From positions 70,775 through 134,774 of the IMG/VR virus record IMGVR_UViG_3300045988_106231: a DNA stretch of 64,000 nucleotides; one strand, 5' to 3'. The notes below the pieces were generated by a model. The model ran no database searches, was not told where the DNA came from, and saw only the letters and a list, made by a program, of their open reading frames with translations. The position numbers were made by a program, and so were the translations under genes. Of this stretch, positions 19,581 through 64,000 are shown piece after piece; the stretch's first letter is position 1; each line of letters begins with the position of its first letter. The DNA comes from a virus.

Positions 19581-19907
19581 ATGAGTGAGAAAAAGGTTTT
19601 GGAAATTATACAGGTTGAAAACTTTTTGAAGTACATAAGAAAAAAGCGAGTGTGGGTCTGCTTTATTTGTAATGGTGTGGATGTTCACATGATCTGCAAG
19701 AAGATGAACGATATTGGTGTAGAGACACATGGGATTGTCAAAGGCATTGGATTTTTTGGAAACGAAAGTCATGTTGAGCTGCGGCAAGAATGCTACGAAG
19801 TAAGGAGGGTTGAGTTTAGGCCGGGCGATAAAGAGAAAGCGTATGAGATGATCTTCGATAACACCAGCGTGTTCGTATCAGAGAATCCAGAGTTGTACGG
19901 GCACTAA
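19581..19907 (+). CDS. hypothetical protein (Cys/His-containing; candidate partner of downstream toxin)
   Basis: 108 aa ORF immediately downstream of promoter 19511-19538. Confidence 0.55.
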   Translation: MSEKKVLEIIQVENFLKYIRKKRVWVCFICNGVDVHMICKKMNDIGVETHGIVKGIGFFGNESHVELRQECYEVRRVEFRPGDKEKAYEMIFDNTSVFVSENPELYGH

Positions 19908-19998: not shown

Positions 19999-20418
19999 AT
20001 GGACAACAATATTGACCCAAAGGTCGGAGAGGTTTGGTTGGTTGATCTATCCAATGCGACAGGTCATCAGCAGCGCGGTATTCGACCGTTCGTTGTGACG
20101 AGTAACAATAAGCGCAACTTCTTCAGTCCCACAATCAAAGGGAATCCGTTGTCTTCCAGAACATACAAGCGTTCTCCGGTTCATGTCCTGCTCTCAAAGG
20201 AAGATTGCGATTTCCTAGAGGTTGACAGTATCGTTCTCTGTGAAGAGACTGACACACTTAACAAAGGGCAGTTTATCAAAAAGCTTGGTGTCTTGTCTGA
20301 GCGTCATATGAATATGATCGCAATGGCCAGATGCAAGGATGAACCGTTTTTGATCTCGGCGTTCGTGAGCGGCGTACAACATACTATGGAATTTCAGAAT
20401 TTTGCCGCATTTGCTTGA
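19999..20418 (+). CDS. MazF/PemK-family endoribonuclease toxin
   Basis: N-terminus GEVWLVDLSNATGHQQRGIRPFVVTSNN matches the MazF/PemK signature (GE/DIW.VDL.P..G.EQ.G.RP.LVVS); 139 aa; AGGAGAAAG RBS. Confidence 0.75.
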   Translation: MDNNIDPKVGEVWLVDLSNATGHQQRGIRPFVVTSNNKRNFFSPTIKGNPLSSRTYKRSPVHVLLSKEDCDFLEVDSIVLCEETDTLNKGQFIKKLGVLSERHMNMIAMARCKDEPFLISAFVSGVQHTMEFQNFAAFA

Positions 20419-21532: not shown

Positions 21533-23605
21533 ATGTCTGATTTCAAGAAATTTCGCGCACTGCTGCAGGACCACTTCAATGAGATGGTGAAGGTCGAGAA
21601 TCCACTGTTTATCACCGATGCAGACGAGGATGAACTGTATAATCTGTATCTCGACAGCTTCCCGGTCGGCACGAATGAATTGTTTCGTAAGCGGCGCGAG
21701 TATGACTGTTCCTGCTGCCGCCGTTTTGTGAAGAATATCGGCAAGCTGGTAGCGTTTGATGCGGGTCGTAATCTGGTTTCTATTTGGGATTTTGATGCTA
21801 AGTCTGCCAAGTATCAGCCTGTTGTGGACGCTCTGGCTACTTACGTGAAGAGTCGCGCCATTGTGAATCCGTACTTTATCAGCCGCAATATGATCGGTTC
21901 TGGCAATATGTTCGGCACCGAGATGAACTACGAGTACGATGAAAACAACAAGGATGTGCATACTTGGGATCATTTCGCAGTCAAGATTCCGCAGCATTTT
22001 ATTACCAGTGGAGATGATGTGGCTACCAAGATGGCTCAGTGGCGTGATTCCGCAAATGTATACAAGCGTTCTCTGGAAGAGCTAACCATGGAGGCCGTTG
22101 ATACTGTGCTGGAGCTGATTGCACAGAATAGTCTGTATCGCGGTAAGGAATTTGAAAACGCCGTCAAGGTATTCAAGACTAACAAGATTGAATACAATAA
22201 TACTCCGGCTGAGAACAAGGCCGCTTATGTTTGGCTGGCCCCGGCGTGGAGCGATATGGGACAGCTTCGTATCCGTAACACCGCTATCGGTACTTTGCTG
22301 GTAAATCTGAGTGAGGGTATGAACGTGGATGCAGCCGTTACTGCCTTCGAGAAAGTTGTTGCTCCCGCAAACTATAAGCGTCCAAAAGCAATTTTCACTA
22401 AGAAGATGCTGGAGGATGCACAGAAAACCGTCACTGAGCTGGGTTATATGAATAGTCTGGGTCGTCGGTTTGCTACTCTGGACGATATCACCGCAAACAA
22501 TATCCTGTTCTGCAACCGTGATGCCGCTCCTCGTATTGCTGGTGCTACAAATCCGTTTGAGGCAATGGCTAAGACTGTTACGATTGATCCCAAGAAGTTT
22601 GGCCGTGCAGAGGAAATTGGTATTGACAAGTTTATCAAAGACGTGTTGCCGACTGCGACCGGCCTAGAACTGTTCATGGAGAATCGTTTCGAGAAGAATA
22701 TGATGTCCCTGATTGCTCCGCAGGATAAGGCTGCGCCAAGCATGTTCAAGTGGCCCAATGGTTTCAGTTGGGCGTATACAGGCAACACGACTGACAGCCA
22801 GATCCGTGAGAACGTCAAGAATGCTGGCGGCAAAGTCGATGGCGTGCTGCGTTTCTCTATCCAGTGGAACGATAAGCAGTGCGAGTGGGATGAAAATGAC
22901 CTTGATGCCCACTGTGTTGAACCGAACGACTTTGAGATCTATTTTGGCAACAAACGAGATTGGAGTACTGGTGGCGATCTGGATGTAGATATTATTCATC
23001 CTGATCGTGATGAGGCCGCTGTTGAGAATATTACATGGCCTGATATCAAAAAGATGAAGGATGGCAAATACGAGTTCTTTGTTCATTGCTTCTCTAACCG
23101 TGGCGGCAAAACTGGTTTCCGCGCAGAGATTGAATTTGATGGTCAAATTTACTCCTTCAATTATAATATTCCGCTGCGTCAGACTCAGAATGTTTCTGTT
23201 GCTACTGTTGTGTTGAAGGATGGGCAGTTTACTATTAAGGAACATCTCAATAGTTCTACTTCTTCCCGTGAAATCTGGGGTGTGAATTCCAATCAGTTTG
23301 TGCCGGTGTCCGTAGCTATGTATTCTCCGAACTACTGGGATGAGCAGACTGGTAATGGCAACCGTCACTACTTTTTCATGCTCAAGGATTGTGTCAACCC
23401 TGAAAAACCCAACGGATTCTATAATGAATTCCTGAAGGTGGAGTTACTGCAGCACAAGAGAGTGTTCGAGGCTCTTGGCTCTCAGATGGCGGTTCAATCG
23501 GTGGATGACCAGCTGTCTGGTGTTGGCTTCTCTGAGACGAAGCACGACCTCTTCATTGTCAAGGTTCAGGGAGCTACTGAGCGAGTTCTGAAAGTTGTTA
23601 TTTGA
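21533..23605 (+). CDS. large hypothetical protein (690 aa)
   Basis: Long ORF with AAAAGGAG RBS; CSCC cluster near N-terminus; no family recognised by eye. Confidence 0.7.
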   Translation: MSDFKKFRALLQDHFNEMVKVENPLFITDADEDELYNLYLDSFPVGTNELFRKRREYDCSCCRRFVKNIGKLVAFDAGRNLVSIWDFDAKSAKYQPVVDALATYVKSRAIVNPYFISRNMIGSGNMFGTEMNYEYDENNKDVHTWDHFAVKIPQHFITSGDDVATKMAQWRDSANVYKRSLEELTMEAVDTVLELIAQNSLYRGKEFENAVKVFKTNKIEYNNTPAENKAAYVWLAPAWSDMGQLRIRNTAIGTLLVNLSEGMNVDAAVTAFEKVVAPANYKRPKAIFTKKMLEDAQKTVTELGYMNSLGRRFATLDDITANNILFCNRDAAPRIAGATNPFEAMAKTVTIDPKKFGRAEEIGIDKFIKDVLPTATGLELFMENRFEKNMMSLIAPQDKAAPSMFKWPNGFSWAYTGNTTDSQIRENVKNAGGKVDGVLRFSIQWNDKQCEWDENDLDAHCVEPNDFEIYFGNKRDWSTGGDLDVDIIHPDRDEAAVENITWPDIKKMKDGKYEFFVHCFSNRGGKTGFRAEIEFDGQIYSFNYNIPLRQTQNVSVATVVLKDGQFTIKEHLNSSTSSREIWGVNSNQFVPVSVAMYSPNYWDEQTGNGNRHYFFMLKDCVNPEKPNGFYNEFLKVELLQHKRVFEALGSQMAVQSVDDQLSGVGFSETKHDLFIVKVQGATERVLKVVI

Positions 23606-23621
23606 AAAGGAGAGAATGAAT

Positions 23622-24005
23622 ATGGAAAAGAATCTATTTGAAATCGCAACTCGTAACCGTTATCGTTTTACCTACAAGGGTGTCATGACCGTGGAAGACC
23701 TGTGGGATCTGAGCGTCGAGGCGTTGGATGCAATTTTTAAGACTTTGAACCGTCAAAAGAAGACTGCCGACGAAGATTCTCTGCTGACCACTAAGAGCGC
23801 CGCCGATACTGAGTTGGCTAATAAAATCGAGCTGGTCAAATATATTGTGTCTATTAAGTTGGCTGAGGCCGATGAGCGAGTGAATGCCGCCGAGAAGAAG
23901 GCACAGCGCGATAAGATTCTGGCTATCATGGCTAAGAAACAGGATGCCGCCCTTGAGGGTATGGATATGAAGCAGTTGGAAGCAGAGCTTGCAAAACTGT
24001 CCTAA
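23622..24005 (+). CDS. hypothetical alpha-helical protein
   Basis: ATG 23622 is 7 nt after AAAGGAGAG. Confidence 0.55.
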   Translation: MEKNLFEIATRNRYRFTYKGVMTVEDLWDLSVEALDAIFKTLNRQKKTADEDSLLTTKSAADTELANKIELVKYIVSIKLAEADERVNAAEKKAQRDKILAIMAKKQDAALEGMDMKQLEAELAKLS

Positions 24006-24071: not shown

Positions 24072-24156
24072 GGGGATATGGTGAAATTGGCAGCCACGCT
24101 TGATTCAAACTCAAGTGTCAAAAGACGTGTCGGTTCAAATCCGACTATCCCTACCA
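24072..24156 (+). tRNA. tRNA-Leu(CAA), type II, CCA encoded
   Basis: Manual fold: acceptor GGGGATA/TATCCCT, anticodon arm CTTGA-TTCAAAC-TCAAG, long variable arm, T-arm GTCGG-TTCAAAT-CCGAC. Confidence 0.7.
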
Positions 24157-24353
24157 TGAAAATCAGTTGTTTCAGCTAGATCGGGGATTGGCCGTTCATT
24201 GGCAAACGACAGGTATCATACCGGTAAAGGATACCGAGCCAAATAGGAAGGGAAATAAGGTGCAAGCCGAGTAGCTGTCGGACGAATACTCTTCAGGTAG
24301 CCAGTAAACTGGAACGTAAAACGAATGTTGGCTGTTTCTGATTTTCTTTACAA

Positions 24354-24437
24354 GCCACTGTGGTGAAATTGGCAGACACGAGGGACTTAAAATCCCTTTC
24401 TGGCAACAGAGTACGGGTCCAAATCCCGTCGGTGGCA
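24354..24437 (+). tRNA. tRNA-Leu(TAA), type II, no CCA
   Basis: Acceptor GCCACTG/CGGTGGC, anticodon arm AGGGA-CTTAAAA-TCCCT, long variable arm, T-loop TTCAAAT. Confidence 0.7.
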
Positions 24438-24444
24438 TTTATAT

Positions 24445-24520
24445 CCGGGTGTAGCTCAGTTGGAAGAGCGCGTGTTTTGGGAACATGAGGCCGCAGGATC
24501 ATGACCTGTCACTCGGACCA
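24445..24520 (+). tRNA. tRNA-Pro(TGG), CCA encoded
   Basis: Acceptor CCGGGTG/CACTCGG, D-arm GCTC..GAGC, anticodon arm CGTGT-TTTGGGA-ACATG; T-loop ATCATGA is non-canonical (A54, U58). Confidence 0.55.
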
Positions 24521-24525
24521 TATAA

Positions 24526-24599
24526 TGCGTCGTAGCCAAGCGGTTAAGGCAGGGTCCTTTGAAGTCCCGATTGCGAGAGTTCGATTCTCTCCGGCGCAA
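24526..24599 (+). tRNA. tRNA-Gln(TTG), no CCA
   Basis: U1:A72 first pair as in bacterial tRNA-Gln; anticodon loop CTTTGAA; T-arm GAGAG-TTCGATT-CTCTC. Confidence 0.6.
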
Positions 24600-24604
24600 T
24601 TTAT

Positions 24605-24690
24605 GCGGGTATGGTGAAATTGGCGAGACACGAATGCTTTAGGGACATTTGCCGAAAGGTATACCAGTTCGAATCTGGTTACCCGCACCA
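24605..24690 (+). tRNA. tRNA-Leu(TAG), type II, CCA encoded
   Basis: Acceptor GCGGGTA/TACCCGC; anticodon arm AATGC-TTTAGGG-ACATT with a C31·A39 mismatch; long variable arm; T-loop TTCGAAT. Confidence 0.55.
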
Positions 24691-24793
24691 CGGTCATAGA
24701 ATGGTTGCGTACCGTTTATTGATCTCCTTTGACCACTATTATTCCCAGCTTACTCGTAAGAGTGCAGTAGTACTTTGTAAGTTGGGTTCTTAT

Positions 24794-24869
24794 GCGACTG
24801 TAGTTCAATTGGCAGAGCGTCAGATTTCCAATCTGAATGTTGCGGGATCATACCCCGTCAGTCGCTCCA
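24794..24869 (+). tRNA. tRNA-Gly(TCC), CCA encoded
   Basis: Acceptor GCGACTG/CAGTCGC, anticodon arm TCAGA-TTTCCAA-TCTGA, discriminator U; T-loop ATCATAC is non-canonical. Confidence 0.6.
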
Positions 24870-25000
24870 CGCGCAGCCCCTTACGCTGCACCGGTTACTC
24901 AGAGCCGAAAGGAACCTATATGTTACGACATGGTTGCCAAGAGTGATCATATTGGAACGCGACGTAGCTTGGATAGTAAGAATTAAATTCTGAGGTATAC

Positions 25001-25067
25001 GGCTGGATAGCTTAATGGTAAAAGCGCTCGGAAACACCGAGAGATAAGGTTCGATTCCTTCACTGGC
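25001..25067 (+). ncRNA. degenerate tRNA-like element (pseudo-tRNA?)
   Basis: Canonical D-arm (GCT-TAATGGTAAA-AGC) and T-arm (AAGG-TTCGATT-CCTT), but no pairable acceptor stem and an aberrant anticodon hairpin CTCGG-AAACA-CCGAG. Confidence 0.35.
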
Positions 25068-25096
25068 ATCGCGCCGATGAAAGTCGGCGTTTGCAT

Positions 25097-25188
25097 GGGA
25101 CGTTAGCTTAGTTGGTTAAAGCTCCTGGCTCATAACCGGGTGATGAGGATAACACCTCACAGGGGTTCGAGTCCCTTACGTCCCACCA
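25097..25188 (+). tRNA. atypical tRNA, anticodon CAT, 20-nt variable arm (92 nt, CCA encoded)
   Basis: Acceptor GGGACGT/ACGTCCC, D-arm GCTT-AGTTGGTTA-AAGC, anticodon arm CCTGG-CTCATAA-CCGGG, variable arm with TGAGG/CCTCA stem, T-arm AGGGG-TTCGAGT-CCCTT. Confidence 0.55.
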
Positions 25189-25385
25189 GCCCGATAGGGC
25201 ATACATAAAATCTGCTAGAACTTTTGTTTTATAAGCGAATGAATAATATGACGTTAATACGTCTATTATTTTTCGCTCATTTTTAAAGTTTTAGCTATAT
25301 TACACAGGATACTAAAGGGGGAGTTGTAATCTTACGAGTTTTAATTGCCTGTGAGGAATCACAGGAAGTTTGTAAAGCATTTCGA

Positions 25386-26018
25386 TTGCTTGGTCATGAA
25401 GCGTATTCTTGTGATATTCAACCTCCGTCCGGTGGTCACCCAGAGTGGCATATTTTGGGTAATGCACTGGCAGCTTTACAGGGTGGGCAGATAGTCACAA
25501 TGGACGGCACACAACACTATGTTAAGCAGTGGGATCTATTGATTGCACATCCTCCGTGTACATATTTATCAAACGCTGGCGCACGATGGTTGTGGGCTGG
25601 GCACAAATTGAATCAAGAACGGTATCAACAGGGATTAGAAGCTAAGGAATTCTTTATGGCGTTTTACAACGCACCGATCAAACACATTTGTGTTGAGAAT
25701 CCAATTCCGAGTGCTGTTTATGAAATGCCAAAACCATCGCAGATGATTCAGCCATATGAATTTTATGGTAAGGACCATCCATGGACAAAGAAGACCTGTT
25801 TATGGCTGAAAGGTCTTCCTAATCTGGTTCCGGTTGAAGCGGTTGAACCGAAGGGTCCGTATTGCCCTTGTGGAACTTCGGCCAATAAAGGCAATGTAAG
25901 AAATCGTGGCGCAGCTAAACGTGGTGAGGATGCAAAGAATAGAGCTAAGACCTTCCATGGGATTGCTCGTGCTATCGCAGAACAATTTTCAGAGTACATT
26001 GAAAATGAGGTGAATTGA
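25386..26018 (+). CDS. C5-cytosine-methyltransferase-like protein with degenerate motif I; start unclear (in-frame extension to 25317 with no ATG/GTG/TTG)
   Basis: AHPPCTYLSNAG matches C5-MTase motif IV (PCQ.FS.AG) with catalytic Cys; ICVENP matches motif VI (ENV). The upstream in-frame sequence LRVLIACEESQEVCKAFRLLGHEAYS aligns to the motif I region but lacks the FxGxGG glycines. GGGGGAG RBS at 25317-25323. No target-recognition domain; only ~230 aa. Confidence 0.5.
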   Translation: MLGHEAYSCDIQPPSGGHPEWHILGNALAALQGGQIVTMDGTQHYVKQWDLLIAHPPCTYLSNAGARWLWAGHKLNQERYQQGLEAKEFFMAFYNAPIKHICVENPIPSAVYEMPKPSQMIQPYEFYGKDHPWTKKTCLWLKGLPNLVPVEAVEPKGPYCPCGTSANKGNVRNRGAAKRGEDAKNRAKTFHGIARAIAEQFSEYIENEVN

Positions 26019-26560
26019 TGCCAGAAAACAAAGGATATCTTACAGCTGACCGATCTGTATCAGGTGATGAGCGATATACACCGGTTTATGCGGTTGTTCC
26101 ACTGCTTGAGTTCACCCCCCCGTCGAGTAAAGCTGTGATTTGGTGTCCGTTTGATAAAGAATGGTCTTCCTTTGTGAAGGTATTCAGAGATGCTGGGTAC
26201 AAGGTAGAATGTAGCCACATTGATAACGGGCAAGATTTCTTTACATATGAACCAGAGCGTTGGGATGTTATGATTTCAAATCCTCCTTTTAGTAGGAAGG
26301 ATGAAGTATTGCGTAGAGCCTATGAGCTTGAAAAGCCGTTTGCTCTACTACTTCCTGCAAATAGTATTCAGGGTAAGACACGATTTGACATCTTCAAAAA
26401 TGATGTACAGATGCTGTGTTTTGATTCTCGAATCGGATTTATGGACCCTGAACATACTGACAGCCCTGTTGAGGGAGTGTCGTTTGGAAGTGCGTACTTC
26501 TGTAGAAATTTTCTTCCAAGTAAGTTAGAGTTACGGAAACTCGATAAAAAAATCTCATAA
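26018..26560 (+). CDS. N6-adenine DNA methyltransferase, phage Dam-like
   Basis: YTPVYAVVPLL followed by ISNPPFS (motif IV NPPF/DPPY); 4-nt overlap with upstream MTase-like gene. Confidence 0.6.
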   Translation: MPENKGYLTADRSVSGDERYTPVYAVVPLLEFTPPSSKAVIWCPFDKEWSSFVKVFRDAGYKVECSHIDNGQDFFTYEPERWDVMISNPPFSRKDEVLRRAYELEKPFALLLPANSIQGKTRFDIFKNDVQMLCFDSRIGFMDPEHTDSPVEGVSFGSAYFCRNFLPSKLELRKLDKKIS

Positions 26561-62833: not shown

Positions 62834-64000
62834 ATGATAAGACGTAAAGATAATAATGGCAAAGTTTTAAAAGACGGCGAGAGCCAGAGAAAGGATGGGA
62901 GATACCAATATAGATGGACAAACAAACTTGGAAAACGCTCAATAATATACGCCACTTCACTTAAAGAATTGAGAGAAAAAGAAGCTGAAATCCAAGAAAA
63001 ACTTAATTTTGGTGTAACGTCTATTTCAAAAATCACAGTGTACCAATTAGCAAAAAGACATCTCGAAGAAACAAAACTCACTATTAGGCCAAGCAGCTAT
63101 AAAACAAAATCGCAGAATTTGAAAATCTTTCAGAATCACCTAATTGGGGAAATGAATGCAACTGATATTTTAGTGCGCGATGTAAAACAATTTGCACGAG
63201 AATTGGATAACGAAGGATATTGTTATACAACAATCAGAGATGTCATGTCTTTAGCTAGACCGGCATTTCAAGAAATGTTTGATGAGAATATAATTCCTAG
63301 AAATCCATTCGTTTTTAAATTAAATACAGTTGTCAAATGTGACTCAAAAGAAAAAGAAATATTAACAGAAGAGCAGTATCAAAATCTGATCAAGTTCATG
63401 AAATCTAGTCGAGTATATAAAAGGCATGTTGGCATGGTGATGCTTTTGCACGAGACAGGACTTCGAGCAGGAGAATTATGCGGGCTAACAAAAAAGTCAT
63501 TTGATTTTGATAACAACACTGTTACTATATCTCATCAGATGGTGTACGATGGAAAGAGCGGCGGGCTGTATTTAGCACCTACAAAAACAGAAAGTGGGAT
63601 AAGGACTATCCCATTGTCTAAAGACGCCATCATTGCTTTTGAAGAAGCGATAAAACAACGACCGATTGTAAAAGCAGAGAGAATAATAGATGGGCAAGCC
63701 GACTTCTTGTTTATAGCAAAAACTGGAAGGCCCTATACGAATAAAAACCTTGTTAGAATTTTTGAAGGACTAATCAAAGCCTATAATAGTTGCCATGATG
63801 AACCATTGCCTGAAGTCACTGCCCATAGTATGCGCCACGAATATTGTACACGGCTTGTCAAAGCCAAGATGGATGTTAAATCGGTTCAATACCTCATGGG
63901 ACATTCGTCGCCCGATATAACCTTAAAAGTGTATACTCATATCTTAAAAGAAGAGACCGAAGCAGAGGCAATCAAACAGTTTAATAGGATTGTTTCCTAA
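62834..64000 (+). CDS. int: tyrosine integrase, Tn916 Int family
   Basis: N-terminus RRKDNNGKVLKDGESQRKDGRYQYRW parallels Int-Tn916 (RRDNRGRILKTGESQRKDGRYLYKY); catalytic AHSMRHEYCTRL and LMGHSSPDITLKVYTHI (H-R-Y); AAGGAG RBS. Confidence 0.85.
   Translation: MIRRKDNNGKVLKDGESQRKDGRYQYRWTNKLGKRSIIYATSLKELREKEAEIQEKLNFGVTSISKITVYQLAKRHLEETKLTIRPSSYKTKSQNLKIFQNHLIGEMNATDILVRDVKQFARELDNEGYCYTTIRDVMSLARPAFQEMFDENIIPRNPFVFKLNTVVKCDSKEKEILTEEQYQNLIKFMKSSRVYKRHVGMVMLLHETGLRAGELCGLTKKSFDFDNNTVTISHQMVYDGKSGGLYLAPTKTESGIRTIPLSKDAIIAFEEAIKQRPIVKAERIIDGQADFLFIAKTGRPYTNKNLVRIFEGLIKAYNSCHDEPLPEVTAHSMRHEYCTRLVKAKMDVKSVQYLMGHSSPDITLKVYTHILKEETEAEAIKQFNRIVS

Follow-up and report, generated by a model that had tools for sequence, protein, structure and literature searches.

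In textbook transfer RNA (tRNA) biology, long variable arms are reserved for the leucine, serine, tyrosine and selenocysteine isotypes, the class-II tRNAs. Nematode nev-tRNAs reportedly combine leucine-like bodies with isoleucine (UAU) or glycine anticodons and are charged with leucine in vitro. Long variable arms (V-arms) on tRNAs with anticodons other than those of serine or leucine are furthermore known from the allo-tRNAs of Clostridia, other bacteria and phages, in which UAU (codon AUA) is among the commonest anticodons (Mukai et al. 2017, PMC5389517). Their acceptor/T branches are of the 8/4 or 9/3 type, their anticodon stems are long, their D-arms resemble that of tRNA-Sec, and position 73 is mostly G or U (PMC5389517). 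Bacterial tRNA-Ile2 (ileX type) also reads AUA, with a CAU anticodon that TilS converts to lysidine-AU. Here we describe a 92-nucleotide (nt) tRNA gene with a CAU anticodon and a long variable arm, located at 25097..25188 on the + strand of a 64,000-nt stretch of viral DNA (IMG/VR record IMGVR_UViG_3300045988_106231, positions 70,775 to 134,774), which is referred to as the window in the following. The gene is supported by ARAGORN, Rfam, conservation and covariation, and we predict a tRNA of the Ile2 type. As the best overall explanation of the data we propose, with moderate confidence, a maintained class-I Ile2-type tRNA whose extra arm would be a relic T-arm that is probably tolerated.

With tRNA-Ile2, the functional type proposed here, the phage CAU tRNA shares the loop CUCAUAA with A37 and A38, the pairs G1-C72, G3-C70, C5-G68 and U12-A23, A73, a class-I core and a location alongside other minor-codon tRNAs. 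It differs by a 15-nt hairpin at 47/48, resulting in a length of 92 compared to ~77 nt, by A-U at 4:69 and by U.G at 29:41. With class-II tRNAs it has a 20-nt variable region with a 5-base-pair (bp) stem-loop at about the same place of the cloverleaf in common, whereas its D-arm and core are of class I, its anticodon is foreign to that class and its arm appears to be a decayed T-arm rather than an ancestral V-arm. The likeness to allo-tRNAs is limited to the long V-arm with a non-Ser/Leu anticodon, since the phage CAU tRNA has a 7/5 branch, a 5-bp anticodon stem and A73. Nev-tRNAs (Hamashima et al. 2012, PMC3333845) likewise display a V-arm and an anticodon foreign to the class-II isotypes; they are eukaryotic, whereas the body of the phage tRNA is Ile2-like, and they can thus be considered an analogue only. 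We file the CAU tRNA as a structural variant of tRNA-Ile2, for which lysidine modification and charging with isoleucine are predicted.

Fold and conservation of the CAU tRNA

ARAGORN calls a 92-nt tRNA-Met(cat) with the anticodon at position 35 at 25097-25188 (+), the same coordinates as given in a first-pass annotation of the window, and Rfam RF00005 matches 25097-25185 with 58.4 bits (E=1.9e-11, gathering score 29), covering the whole model from 1 to 71. In the RF00005 alignment CUCAUAA forms the anticodon loop, as had been claimed, and 17 nt of the variable region are modelled as an insertion. On the + strand, the acceptor stem GGGACGT/ACGTCCC has TA after its 5' strand, followed by the D-arm GCTT-AGTTGGTTA-AAGC and a T, and by the anticodon arm CCTGG-CTCATAA-CCGGG, in which the loop occupies 25129-25135 and the anticodon CAT (25131..25133) is flanked by U33, A37 and A38. 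The 20-nt variable region TGATGAGGATAACACCTCAC (25141-25160, +) can be written as TGAT-GAGGATAACACCTCA-C and contains a hairpin with the 5-bp stem TGAGG/CCTCA and the loop ATAACA. It precedes the functional T-arm AGGGG-TTCGAGT-CCCTT (25161..25177, +), and the gene ends with A73 and an encoded CCA, so that every structural element listed by the first-pass annotation is found in the sequence. When the sequence is folded on its own, the acceptor stem, the T-arm and the extra hairpin are predicted. The features of an RF00005 tRNA are present throughout, namely the cloverleaf, a 7-bp acceptor stem, a 5-bp T-stem, a 7-nt anticodon loop, U8, A14, G18G19, U33 and TTCGA, and the core is that of class I, with a 4-bp D-stem (GCTT/AAGC) and G15 facing C48 in position for the usual tertiary pair.

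Related loci were retrieved from IMG/VR and are denoted by L-numbers (L001 etc.). An exact 22-mer that covers the anticodon loop and runs into the first part of the arm was found in 27 IMG/VR contigs, to which a second pattern from the D-arm added more. The 92-nt gene is carried by 35 contigs of ~25-150 kb from at least 10 datasets, which together with the window amounts to 36 copies with 13 distinct sequences. Homologs in related phages, which had been named as a check, thus exist, and the occurrence of the same 92-nt architecture in independent contigs shows that the arm is not the assembly artefact it might have been. Nucleotides 1-45 are identical in 35 of the 36 copies, with a single change in L013, while the gene flanks are unalignable between the two locus types and the neighbouring protein is 67-100% identical across loci. 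Comparing the invariance of this segment with the divergence around it, we conclude from sequence that the CAU tRNA is real and under selection, i.e. a genuine, selectively maintained phage gene.

Viral class-I CAU tRNAs with an identical D-arm and an otherwise ordinary length of 77 nt are encoded in L174, L146, L151 and L150; the acceptor stem of L174 reads GGGACAT/ATGTCCC, and L146 and L151 have the T-arm GGGGG-TTCGAAT-CCCTC-A in common. Alignment to these four relatives leaves a clean gap, as exactly 15 nt of the window tRNA, GAGGATAACACCTCA at 25145..25159 (+), are absent there between nt 47 and C48. It is this insertion which, together with T47 (25144), provides the 5-bp stem and 6-nt loop of the extra arm. 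Pairs were counted on the cloverleaf in an alignment of the family with the four class-I relatives, with 500 shuffles and slid registers as controls. Paired cells make up 97.8% in this count, and double changes are found at 8 pairs, located in the acceptor, anticodon and T stems; none of the 500 shuffles and no slid register is comparable. At the T-stem pair 49:65, the window displays A49-U65 compared to G49-C65 in other members, with a G.U intermediate in L018, a substitution that is compensatory as judged from the alignment. The 5-bp stem of the extra arm is kept in 36/36 copies, the changes being one G-C to G.U and one A.C, the latter at the loop-closing pair in one subgroup, while its loop varies freely (TTGATT, TTAATT, ATAACA). 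The pairing of the extra arm is consistent with selection, short of proof by covariation and of a demonstration that the hairpin itself is selected.

Outside this family, the CAU tRNA is absent from GenBank phage records, where the best matches span only the 5' half of ordinary CAU tRNAs, and the 2-kb neighbourhood matches only a tRNA-Leu among GenBank phages. The 22-mer occurs in no tRNA of 185,579 representative bacterial genomes, its lone match being a chance one in an Acetothermia coding region without tRNA, and the CAU tRNA sequence with the arm deleted has no match in E. coli genomes. The family is a clade of human-gut phages with genomes of roughly 70-150 kb.

These data also bear on a role outside translation, in which the locus would be a decaying pseudogene, a tRNA-like processing signal or an integration (att) site. 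Such a role might be read from the degenerate tRNA-like element 29 nt upstream, from the presence of several integrases in the window and from defects in some copies, namely those of L013 and L164, as well as L001 with CCA>TCA. We nevertheless regard it as very improbable, as nt 1-45 are invariant but for the one change in L013 despite diverged flanks and genes, the T-stem change is compensatory, all universal tRNA features are present together with the encoded CCA, and the 22-mer is found in no tRNA of the bacterial genomes searched. The strict tRNA-type conservation and the T-stem change likewise render the tRNA-like regulatory RNA, which had been considered initially, unlikely.

Isotype and decoding

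According to Silva et al. 2006, Met and fMet tRNAs usually carry C3-G70, while G3, A3, C70 or T70 leads to assignment as tRNA-Ile(CAT); G3/C70 is described as a complete negative discriminator for Met and fMet tRNAs, C4-G69 and C5-G68 are frequent in tRNA-Ile2, and fMet tRNAs follow the rule of a 1:72 mismatch together with the D-stem pairs A11-U24 and G12-C23 (PMC1635315). The TilS of B. cenocepacia uses G3:C70 as an identity element, and lysidinylation is abolished when the pair is inverted to C3:G70 (PMC11947777). The CAU tRNA of the window features G1-C72, G3-C70, A4-U69, C5-G68, C11-G24, U12-A23 and U29.G41. With 1:72 paired and the fMet pairs A11-U24 and G12-C23 absent, its acceptor end is of the elongator type, and G3-C70 is found in all 36 copies except for G3.U70 in L164 and L172. 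Regarding the E. coli TilS elements C4-G69/C5-G68, C5-G68 is present and 4:69 is A-U, as in the class-I relative L174. Assignment as initiator tRNA-fMet fails on G1-C72, C11-G24 and U12-A23 and on the anticodon stem, the base of which has two G-C pairs instead of the required three owing to U29.G41. In viral class-I tRNAs with the same D-arm position 3 is always G, A or T, and L156 encodes both a CAU tRNA with this D-arm and a distinct Met-like CAU tRNA (C3-G70, loop TTCATAC). We consider it likely from these discriminators that the window gene encodes a tRNA of the Ile2 (lysidine-dependent) type. Among the possibilities raised by the first-pass annotation, a Met/Ile2-like tRNA with an inserted arm is thus the one that stands, as the class-I body, the clean 15-nt insertion and the Ile2-type discriminators in acceptor and D-stem are all found.

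The genetic context was assessed from the tRNA set and the codons of the phage. The seven tRNA genes called by ARAGORN in the window are all located on the + strand between 24072 and 25188. They belong to a cluster (24072..25188, +; Rfam 44-61 bits) in the order Leu-CAA, Leu-UAA, Pro-UGG, Gln-UUG, Leu-UAG, Gly-UCC, the degenerate element and, as its last member, the CAU tRNA. ATA makes up 0.67% of the window's codons and the codons of the other phage tRNAs 0.62-1.47%, compared to 2.6% for ATG. In codon alignments of the window with related loci, comprising 25 substitution pairs, ATA is exchanged with ATC/ATT (7), GTA (4), ACA (4), ATG (3), Leu (2) and Ser (1) codons, a pattern that fits ATA=Ile at low power.

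Five relatives (L013, L016, L164, L165 and L172) additionally encode a tRNA-Ile(UAU) ~400 nt (402-408) downstream of the CAU tRNA. Structure-damaging changes of the CAU gene are confined to three of these five: A4>T and CCA>CTA in L013, T-loop TTCG>TCCG and C70>T in L164, and C70>T in L172. Damage that occurs only beside tRNA-Ile(UAU) would look like relaxed constraint on a redundant reader of AUA. The tRNA set, the decay pattern of the CAU gene and the ATA exchanges agree with ordinary decoding of AUA as isoleucine. The tRNA-Ile(UAU) itself is 91 nt long with a long variable region (L013 9153-9243; L016 8084-8174; Rfam 51.7 bits), has only 3 good anticodon-stem pairs and contains CCAGATAAG in its arm. 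This arm motif is partly common to UAU long-arm tRNAs of unrelated loci, with CCAGATAAG in L103 and CCAGATAG in L130.

If the gene instead encoded an elongator tRNA-Met, methionyl-tRNA synthetase (MetRS) would read the unmodified CAU, the tRNA would supplement AUG decoding and the arm would be a passenger. This identity conforms to CAU with A73 and to the ARAGORN label, which is based on the anticodon only, and is in line with A4-U69 not being a canonical Ile2 pair, with ATG contributing 2.6% of the window's codons and with a review according to which unmodified tRNA-Ile2 is itself a MetRS substrate. However, elongator tRNA-Met would be expected to combine CAU and A73 with C3-G70, the usual pair of Met and fMet tRNAs (PMC1635315), and G3-C70 is found instead. 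The same D-arm type is encoded beside the distinct Met-like CAU tRNA in L156, all other tRNAs of the phage serve minor codons, decay of the CAU gene is restricted to loci that also have a UAU tRNA, and among the 76 other long-armed CAU tRNAs listed (see below) a Met-like acceptor end is found just once. We therefore consider an elongator tRNA-Met possible with low probability, and everything apart from Ile2 and elongator Met doubtful.

The first-pass annotation had further suggested charging by leucyl- or seryl-tRNA synthetase (LeuRS, SerRS) and non-canonical decoding of AUG or AUA. As a mimic of class II, the tRNA would be a substrate of LeuRS (or of SerRS or the tyrosyl enzyme, TyrRS), and AUG or AUA would be partly decoded as leucine or serine. 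The long variable arm with its 5-bp stem fits this proposal, as does A73, which is found in tRNA-Leu and bacterial tRNA-Tyr and is the main determinant of E. coli LeuRS. E. coli LeuRS also relies on the class-II core, whereas the CAU tRNA has a 4-bp D-stem with G15 facing C48. Apart from the variable region, which exceeds 10 nt and forms a stem-loop, the class-II hallmarks of a 3-bp D-stem, an enlarged D-loop, a Leu, Ser or Tyr anticodon and, for serine, G73 are missing, and the phage's own tRNA-Leu genes show a class-II D-arm, unlike the CAU tRNA. SerRS needs G73 (PMC5389517), the arm is probably derived from a T-arm, and ATA is exchanged mostly with Ile, Val and Thr codons rather than with those of leucine (twice) or serine (once), again at low power. 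Precedents exist in the nematode V-arm tRNAs, which are described as decoding an alternative genetic code for leucine (PMC3333845), and in allo-tRNAs with Leu anticodons that insert serine in E. coli (PMC5389517). With the core and the arm's likely origin pointing elsewhere, decoding of this kind appears highly unlikely for the CAU tRNA.

Several observations weigh against the reading of a maintained Ile2-type tRNA with a tolerated arm. The pair 4:69 is A-U and not the C-G common in tRNA-Ile2, and 29:41 is U.G and not the C-G that a review lists as an element for E. coli isoleucyl-tRNA synthetase (IleRS). The Ile2 call is based on published discriminator rules and context rather than on an isotype-specific model, and TilS would have to tolerate the extra arm. 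In the window's large conserved genes ATA is limited to 0-4 codons per protein, a strong avoidance that leaves a modest demand for an AUA-reading tRNA. The argument from redundancy comprises ~4 mutational events in one subclade. Finally, no compensatory double change was found in the V-stem by the pair count among family copies.

Origin and possible role of the extra arm

L004 and L024, contigs of a different phage type, match the 22-mer and encode a CAU tRNA of normal length (74 nt), in which the T-arm GAGGG-TTCGATT-CCCTC follows after ...CCGGGTGAT. One arm variant of the family, GAGGTTGATTCCTC, corresponds to the L004/L024 T-arm GAGGGTTCGATTCCCTC minus 3 nt, with 14/14 bases identical and three 1-nt gaps, and is directly preceded by 24 nt that are identical in both. 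The arm and the L004/L024 T-arm align with a score of 11, which was reached by 0/5000 shuffles (mean -1.5), and regarding similarity of V-arm and T-arm the family ranks first, as a clear outlier, among the 70 distinct long-armed CAU tRNAs listed. Owing to this homology we interpret the extra arm as the decayed relic of a second, upstream T-arm. We also considered that the tRNA might have duplicated its own T-arm; that similarity is real (score 7), but the L004/L024 T-arm fits better (11 plus the 24 nt), and recombination between two CAU tRNA genes is therefore preferred. In the simplest route, unequal recombination would have joined the segment from anticodon arm to T-arm of an L004/L024-type CAU tRNA ahead of the resident T-arm. 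Deletion of three single nucleotides, among them the T-loop C, would then have destroyed the T-loop motif, and in the window subgroup the arm would have drifted further to the loop ATAACA. A resemblance between the window arm loop GATAACAC and the arm of the neighbouring UAU tRNA GATAAGAC is near chance (p ~0.08, a rough estimate) and was not used.

In the proposed mechanism, the CAU tRNA would be transcribed with the cluster as the last member of the operon and processed at the encoded CCA. Host TilS would then convert C34 to lysidine, IleRS would charge the tRNA with isoleucine, and the lysidinylated tRNA would read the rare AUA codon and thereby supplement the host pool, as the other phage tRNAs may do for UUA, CUA, UUG, CCA, CAA and GGA. 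In complexes with class-I synthetases the variable loop of the tRNA points into the solvent, and nt 47 bulges outward. The extra hairpin would project from this variable-loop face and, since the face is solvent-exposed, is probably tolerated without a change of identity. Engineered tRNAs with a small hairpin aptamer tag, presumably located at the V-arm position, stay translationally active (Mukai 2020, PMC7590224), which also suggests that the extra arm is likely tolerated; the chassis described there is an allo-tRNA amber suppressor, whereas the phage hairpin is natural and known from sequence.

The CAU tRNA of the window is not the only one of its kind. Viral contigs were scanned for CTCATAA followed by 20-32 nt and GGTTCGANTCC, and further long-armed CAU tRNAs of 84-93 nt were found, with at least 76 distinct sequences in at least 75 loci. 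The initial statement that no long-armed tRNA uses CAU consequently does not hold for phage contigs. A sample was confirmed by Rfam (37-57 bits), and examples from loci L029-L145 are located at L030 7533-7620, L033 3786-3869 and 5588-5674, L036 3793-3884 and L064 7167-7253. Among the 76 listed, 44 have acceptor ends of the initiator type, the 3:70 rule classifies 13 as Ile2-like, one is Met-like and 18 are none of these. The initiator-type ends among the matches listed feature a 1:72 mismatch or weak pair, G2-C71 and C3-G70, many of them together with A11-T24 and G12-C23. Long arms are also found on other isotypes, among the loci listed on 10/45 Asn-GUU, 6/16 Ile-UAU, 5/37 Thr-UGU and 3/23 Cys tRNAs (e.g. 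L033 4718-4803 and 9474-9559; L064 7360-7443, 8122-8207 and 8566-8650; L111; L093; L103). They are rare on other class-I isotypes in these loci, and most of the armed ones read ANN codons. Some long-armed Asn tRNAs have Ser-like D-arms (GGCCGAGTGG). The arms of the other long-armed CAU tRNAs listed are not T-arm-like, indicating that arms arose repeatedly and by different routes. A literature search on phage CAU or initiator tRNAs with long variable arms yielded no description either of the window tRNA or of the others, and extra-armed phage CAU tRNAs are apparently a widespread, undescribed class.

This recurrence bears on a possible adaptive value of the arm. As a structural tag specific to the phage, the arm could protect the tRNA against host nucleases that target tRNAs; alternatively, it could change acceptance by enzymes, for instance by blocking mischarging by MetRS or recruiting a phage factor. 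Both possibilities refer to what the arm does and can be combined with an Ile2 identity. An adaptive arm would account for the retention of the stem in 36/36 copies while the loop varies, and for the independent gain of long arms by many phage CAU tRNAs and, in the same loci, by Asn, Thr and Ile-UAU tRNAs. Evasion of defences that target tRNAs is documented for phage tRNAs (PMC10264068, PMC11555353), and the Septu defence cleaves the variable loop of tRNA-Tyr (PMC13096335), so that host nucleases of this type are a possible selective pressure on arms. Defence-escaping phage tRNAs (PMC10264068, PMC11555353, PMC13096335) resemble the present case in being phage-encoded and structurally unlike host tRNAs; the known cases differ in that they act by anticodon-loop substitutions or by supply of the targeted isoacceptor, with no tRNA-Ile2 defence or extra-arm role described. 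Moreover, the V-stem is without compensatory change and has an A.C mismatch at the loop-closing pair in one subgroup, decay of a T-arm provides a simple accidental origin for the arm, and the window yielded neither a nuclease nor an arm-binding protein. We therefore treat an adaptive arm as a tentative proposal of rather low probability. In a more general form, extra arms would be a recurrent, selected feature of AUN-box phage tRNAs, gained many times independently, which may mark or protect these tRNAs or alter their recognition by TilS, MetRS, IleRS or a phage factor, with a decayed T-arm having been co-opted here; this, too, we consider conceivable but rather unlikely. For the arm described here, tolerance of a relic T-arm by an Ile2-type tRNA remains the favoured explanation.

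Genomic setting and significance

The window is phage-like, with large open reading frames (ORFs) on the + strand that match PHROG families and a G+C content of ~0.40. It contains a replication and nucleotide module with a DnaE-type polymerase, RecD-like and DnaB-like helicases, RecJ, ligase, NrdD, ThyX and FolD, as well as integrases. Among cultured phages, those of Firmicutes come closest in their DNA polymerase, at ~34% identity. Directly upstream of the tRNA cluster, a 690-amino-acid (aa) protein of phrog_1735 (function unknown; 21533-23605, +), for which no Pfam, NCBIfam or PDB sequence match was found, is followed by a 136-aa protein of phrog_2018 (23595-24005, +). Directly downstream, two adjacent overlapping ORFs (25386-26018 and 26015-26560, +) match the DNA methyltransferase families phrog_757 and phrog_799 and may constitute a split or two-part methyltransferase. 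No TilS, aminoacyl-tRNA synthetase or RNA-modification enzyme was found among the window ORFs tested, and no ribozyme or riboswitch at or beside the CAU tRNA in the window or related loci (E<=1 or 0.1).

The degenerate tRNA-like element preceding the CAU tRNA is located at 25002..25068 (+) and scores 30.1 bits with Rfam RF00005, slightly more than the gathering score. It features a mismatched acceptor stem and a 5-nt 'anticodon' loop AAACA, is not called by ARAGORN and has a fold z-score of -0.2. The element, which is followed by the hairpin GCGCCGATGAAAGTCGGCG, is conserved in the window-type loci L009, L038, L166, L168 and L177-L179. After the last tRNA of the cluster, a consensus scan detects a terminator-like hairpin followed by a T-run (25250..25263, +), which is also conserved in window-type loci. 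Most family loci (L002, L003, L007, L010 and others) display a different conserved leader of ~130 nt, TTTGAGGATGG...ACATGGTTAAATCCTCCTCTCT, that reaches exactly to the 5' end of the CAU tRNA, with a Pro-to-CAU spacer of ~540 nt. This leader has no Rfam match and contains internal hairpins, the sequences of which differ among loci. A conserved protein of ~223 aa, for which the window yielded no counterpart, is encoded in 23 family loci (e.g. L010 3732-4400, -; L003 1916-2581, -), where its gene lies within the tRNA cluster, a short distance downstream of the CAU tRNA. No Pfam match was obtained for this protein; its appearance is radical-SAM-like, with an N-terminal CxxxCxxC (FGCHYSCPEC) and GGGDPL as motifs.

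Further away, a 139-aa ORF (19999-20418, +) shows a weak match to MazF-type endoribonucleases (NCBIfam E=4e-4, below the curated cut-off) and is preceded by a 108-aa ORF (19581-19907), with which it may form a toxin-antitoxin pair. A Tn916-type integrase ORF (62834-64000, +) contains 12 ATA codons, corresponding to 39% of its Ile codons compared to ~4-9% in other window ORFs, which suggests that this segment is recently acquired or foreign. In related loci, phage transfer-messenger RNA genes adjoin tRNA clusters (L001 6650-7034, Rfam 90.9 bits; L004 1068-1446), and matches to a type-P5 twister ribozyme (L013 1675-1765, 46.8 bits) and to a group I intron (L029 926-1123) were observed.

The CAU tRNA is itself of moderate interest, and of higher interest as an entry to the class of extra-armed phage CAU tRNAs. 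It represents a class-I tRNA of the Met/Ile CAU group that carries a long arm, the origin of which appears traceable to a decayed second T-arm, and its family would thus illustrate a one-step route to a class-II-like arm. It can moreover be regarded as a natural test of how much extra structure is tolerated at position 47 by TilS, IleRS or MetRS, EF-Tu and the ribosome. If the arms are neutral, such genes still matter for annotation, because they are labelled 'tRNA-Met' by the anticodon alone. If they are adaptive, they would constitute a new layer of the conflict between phages and their hosts over tRNAs.

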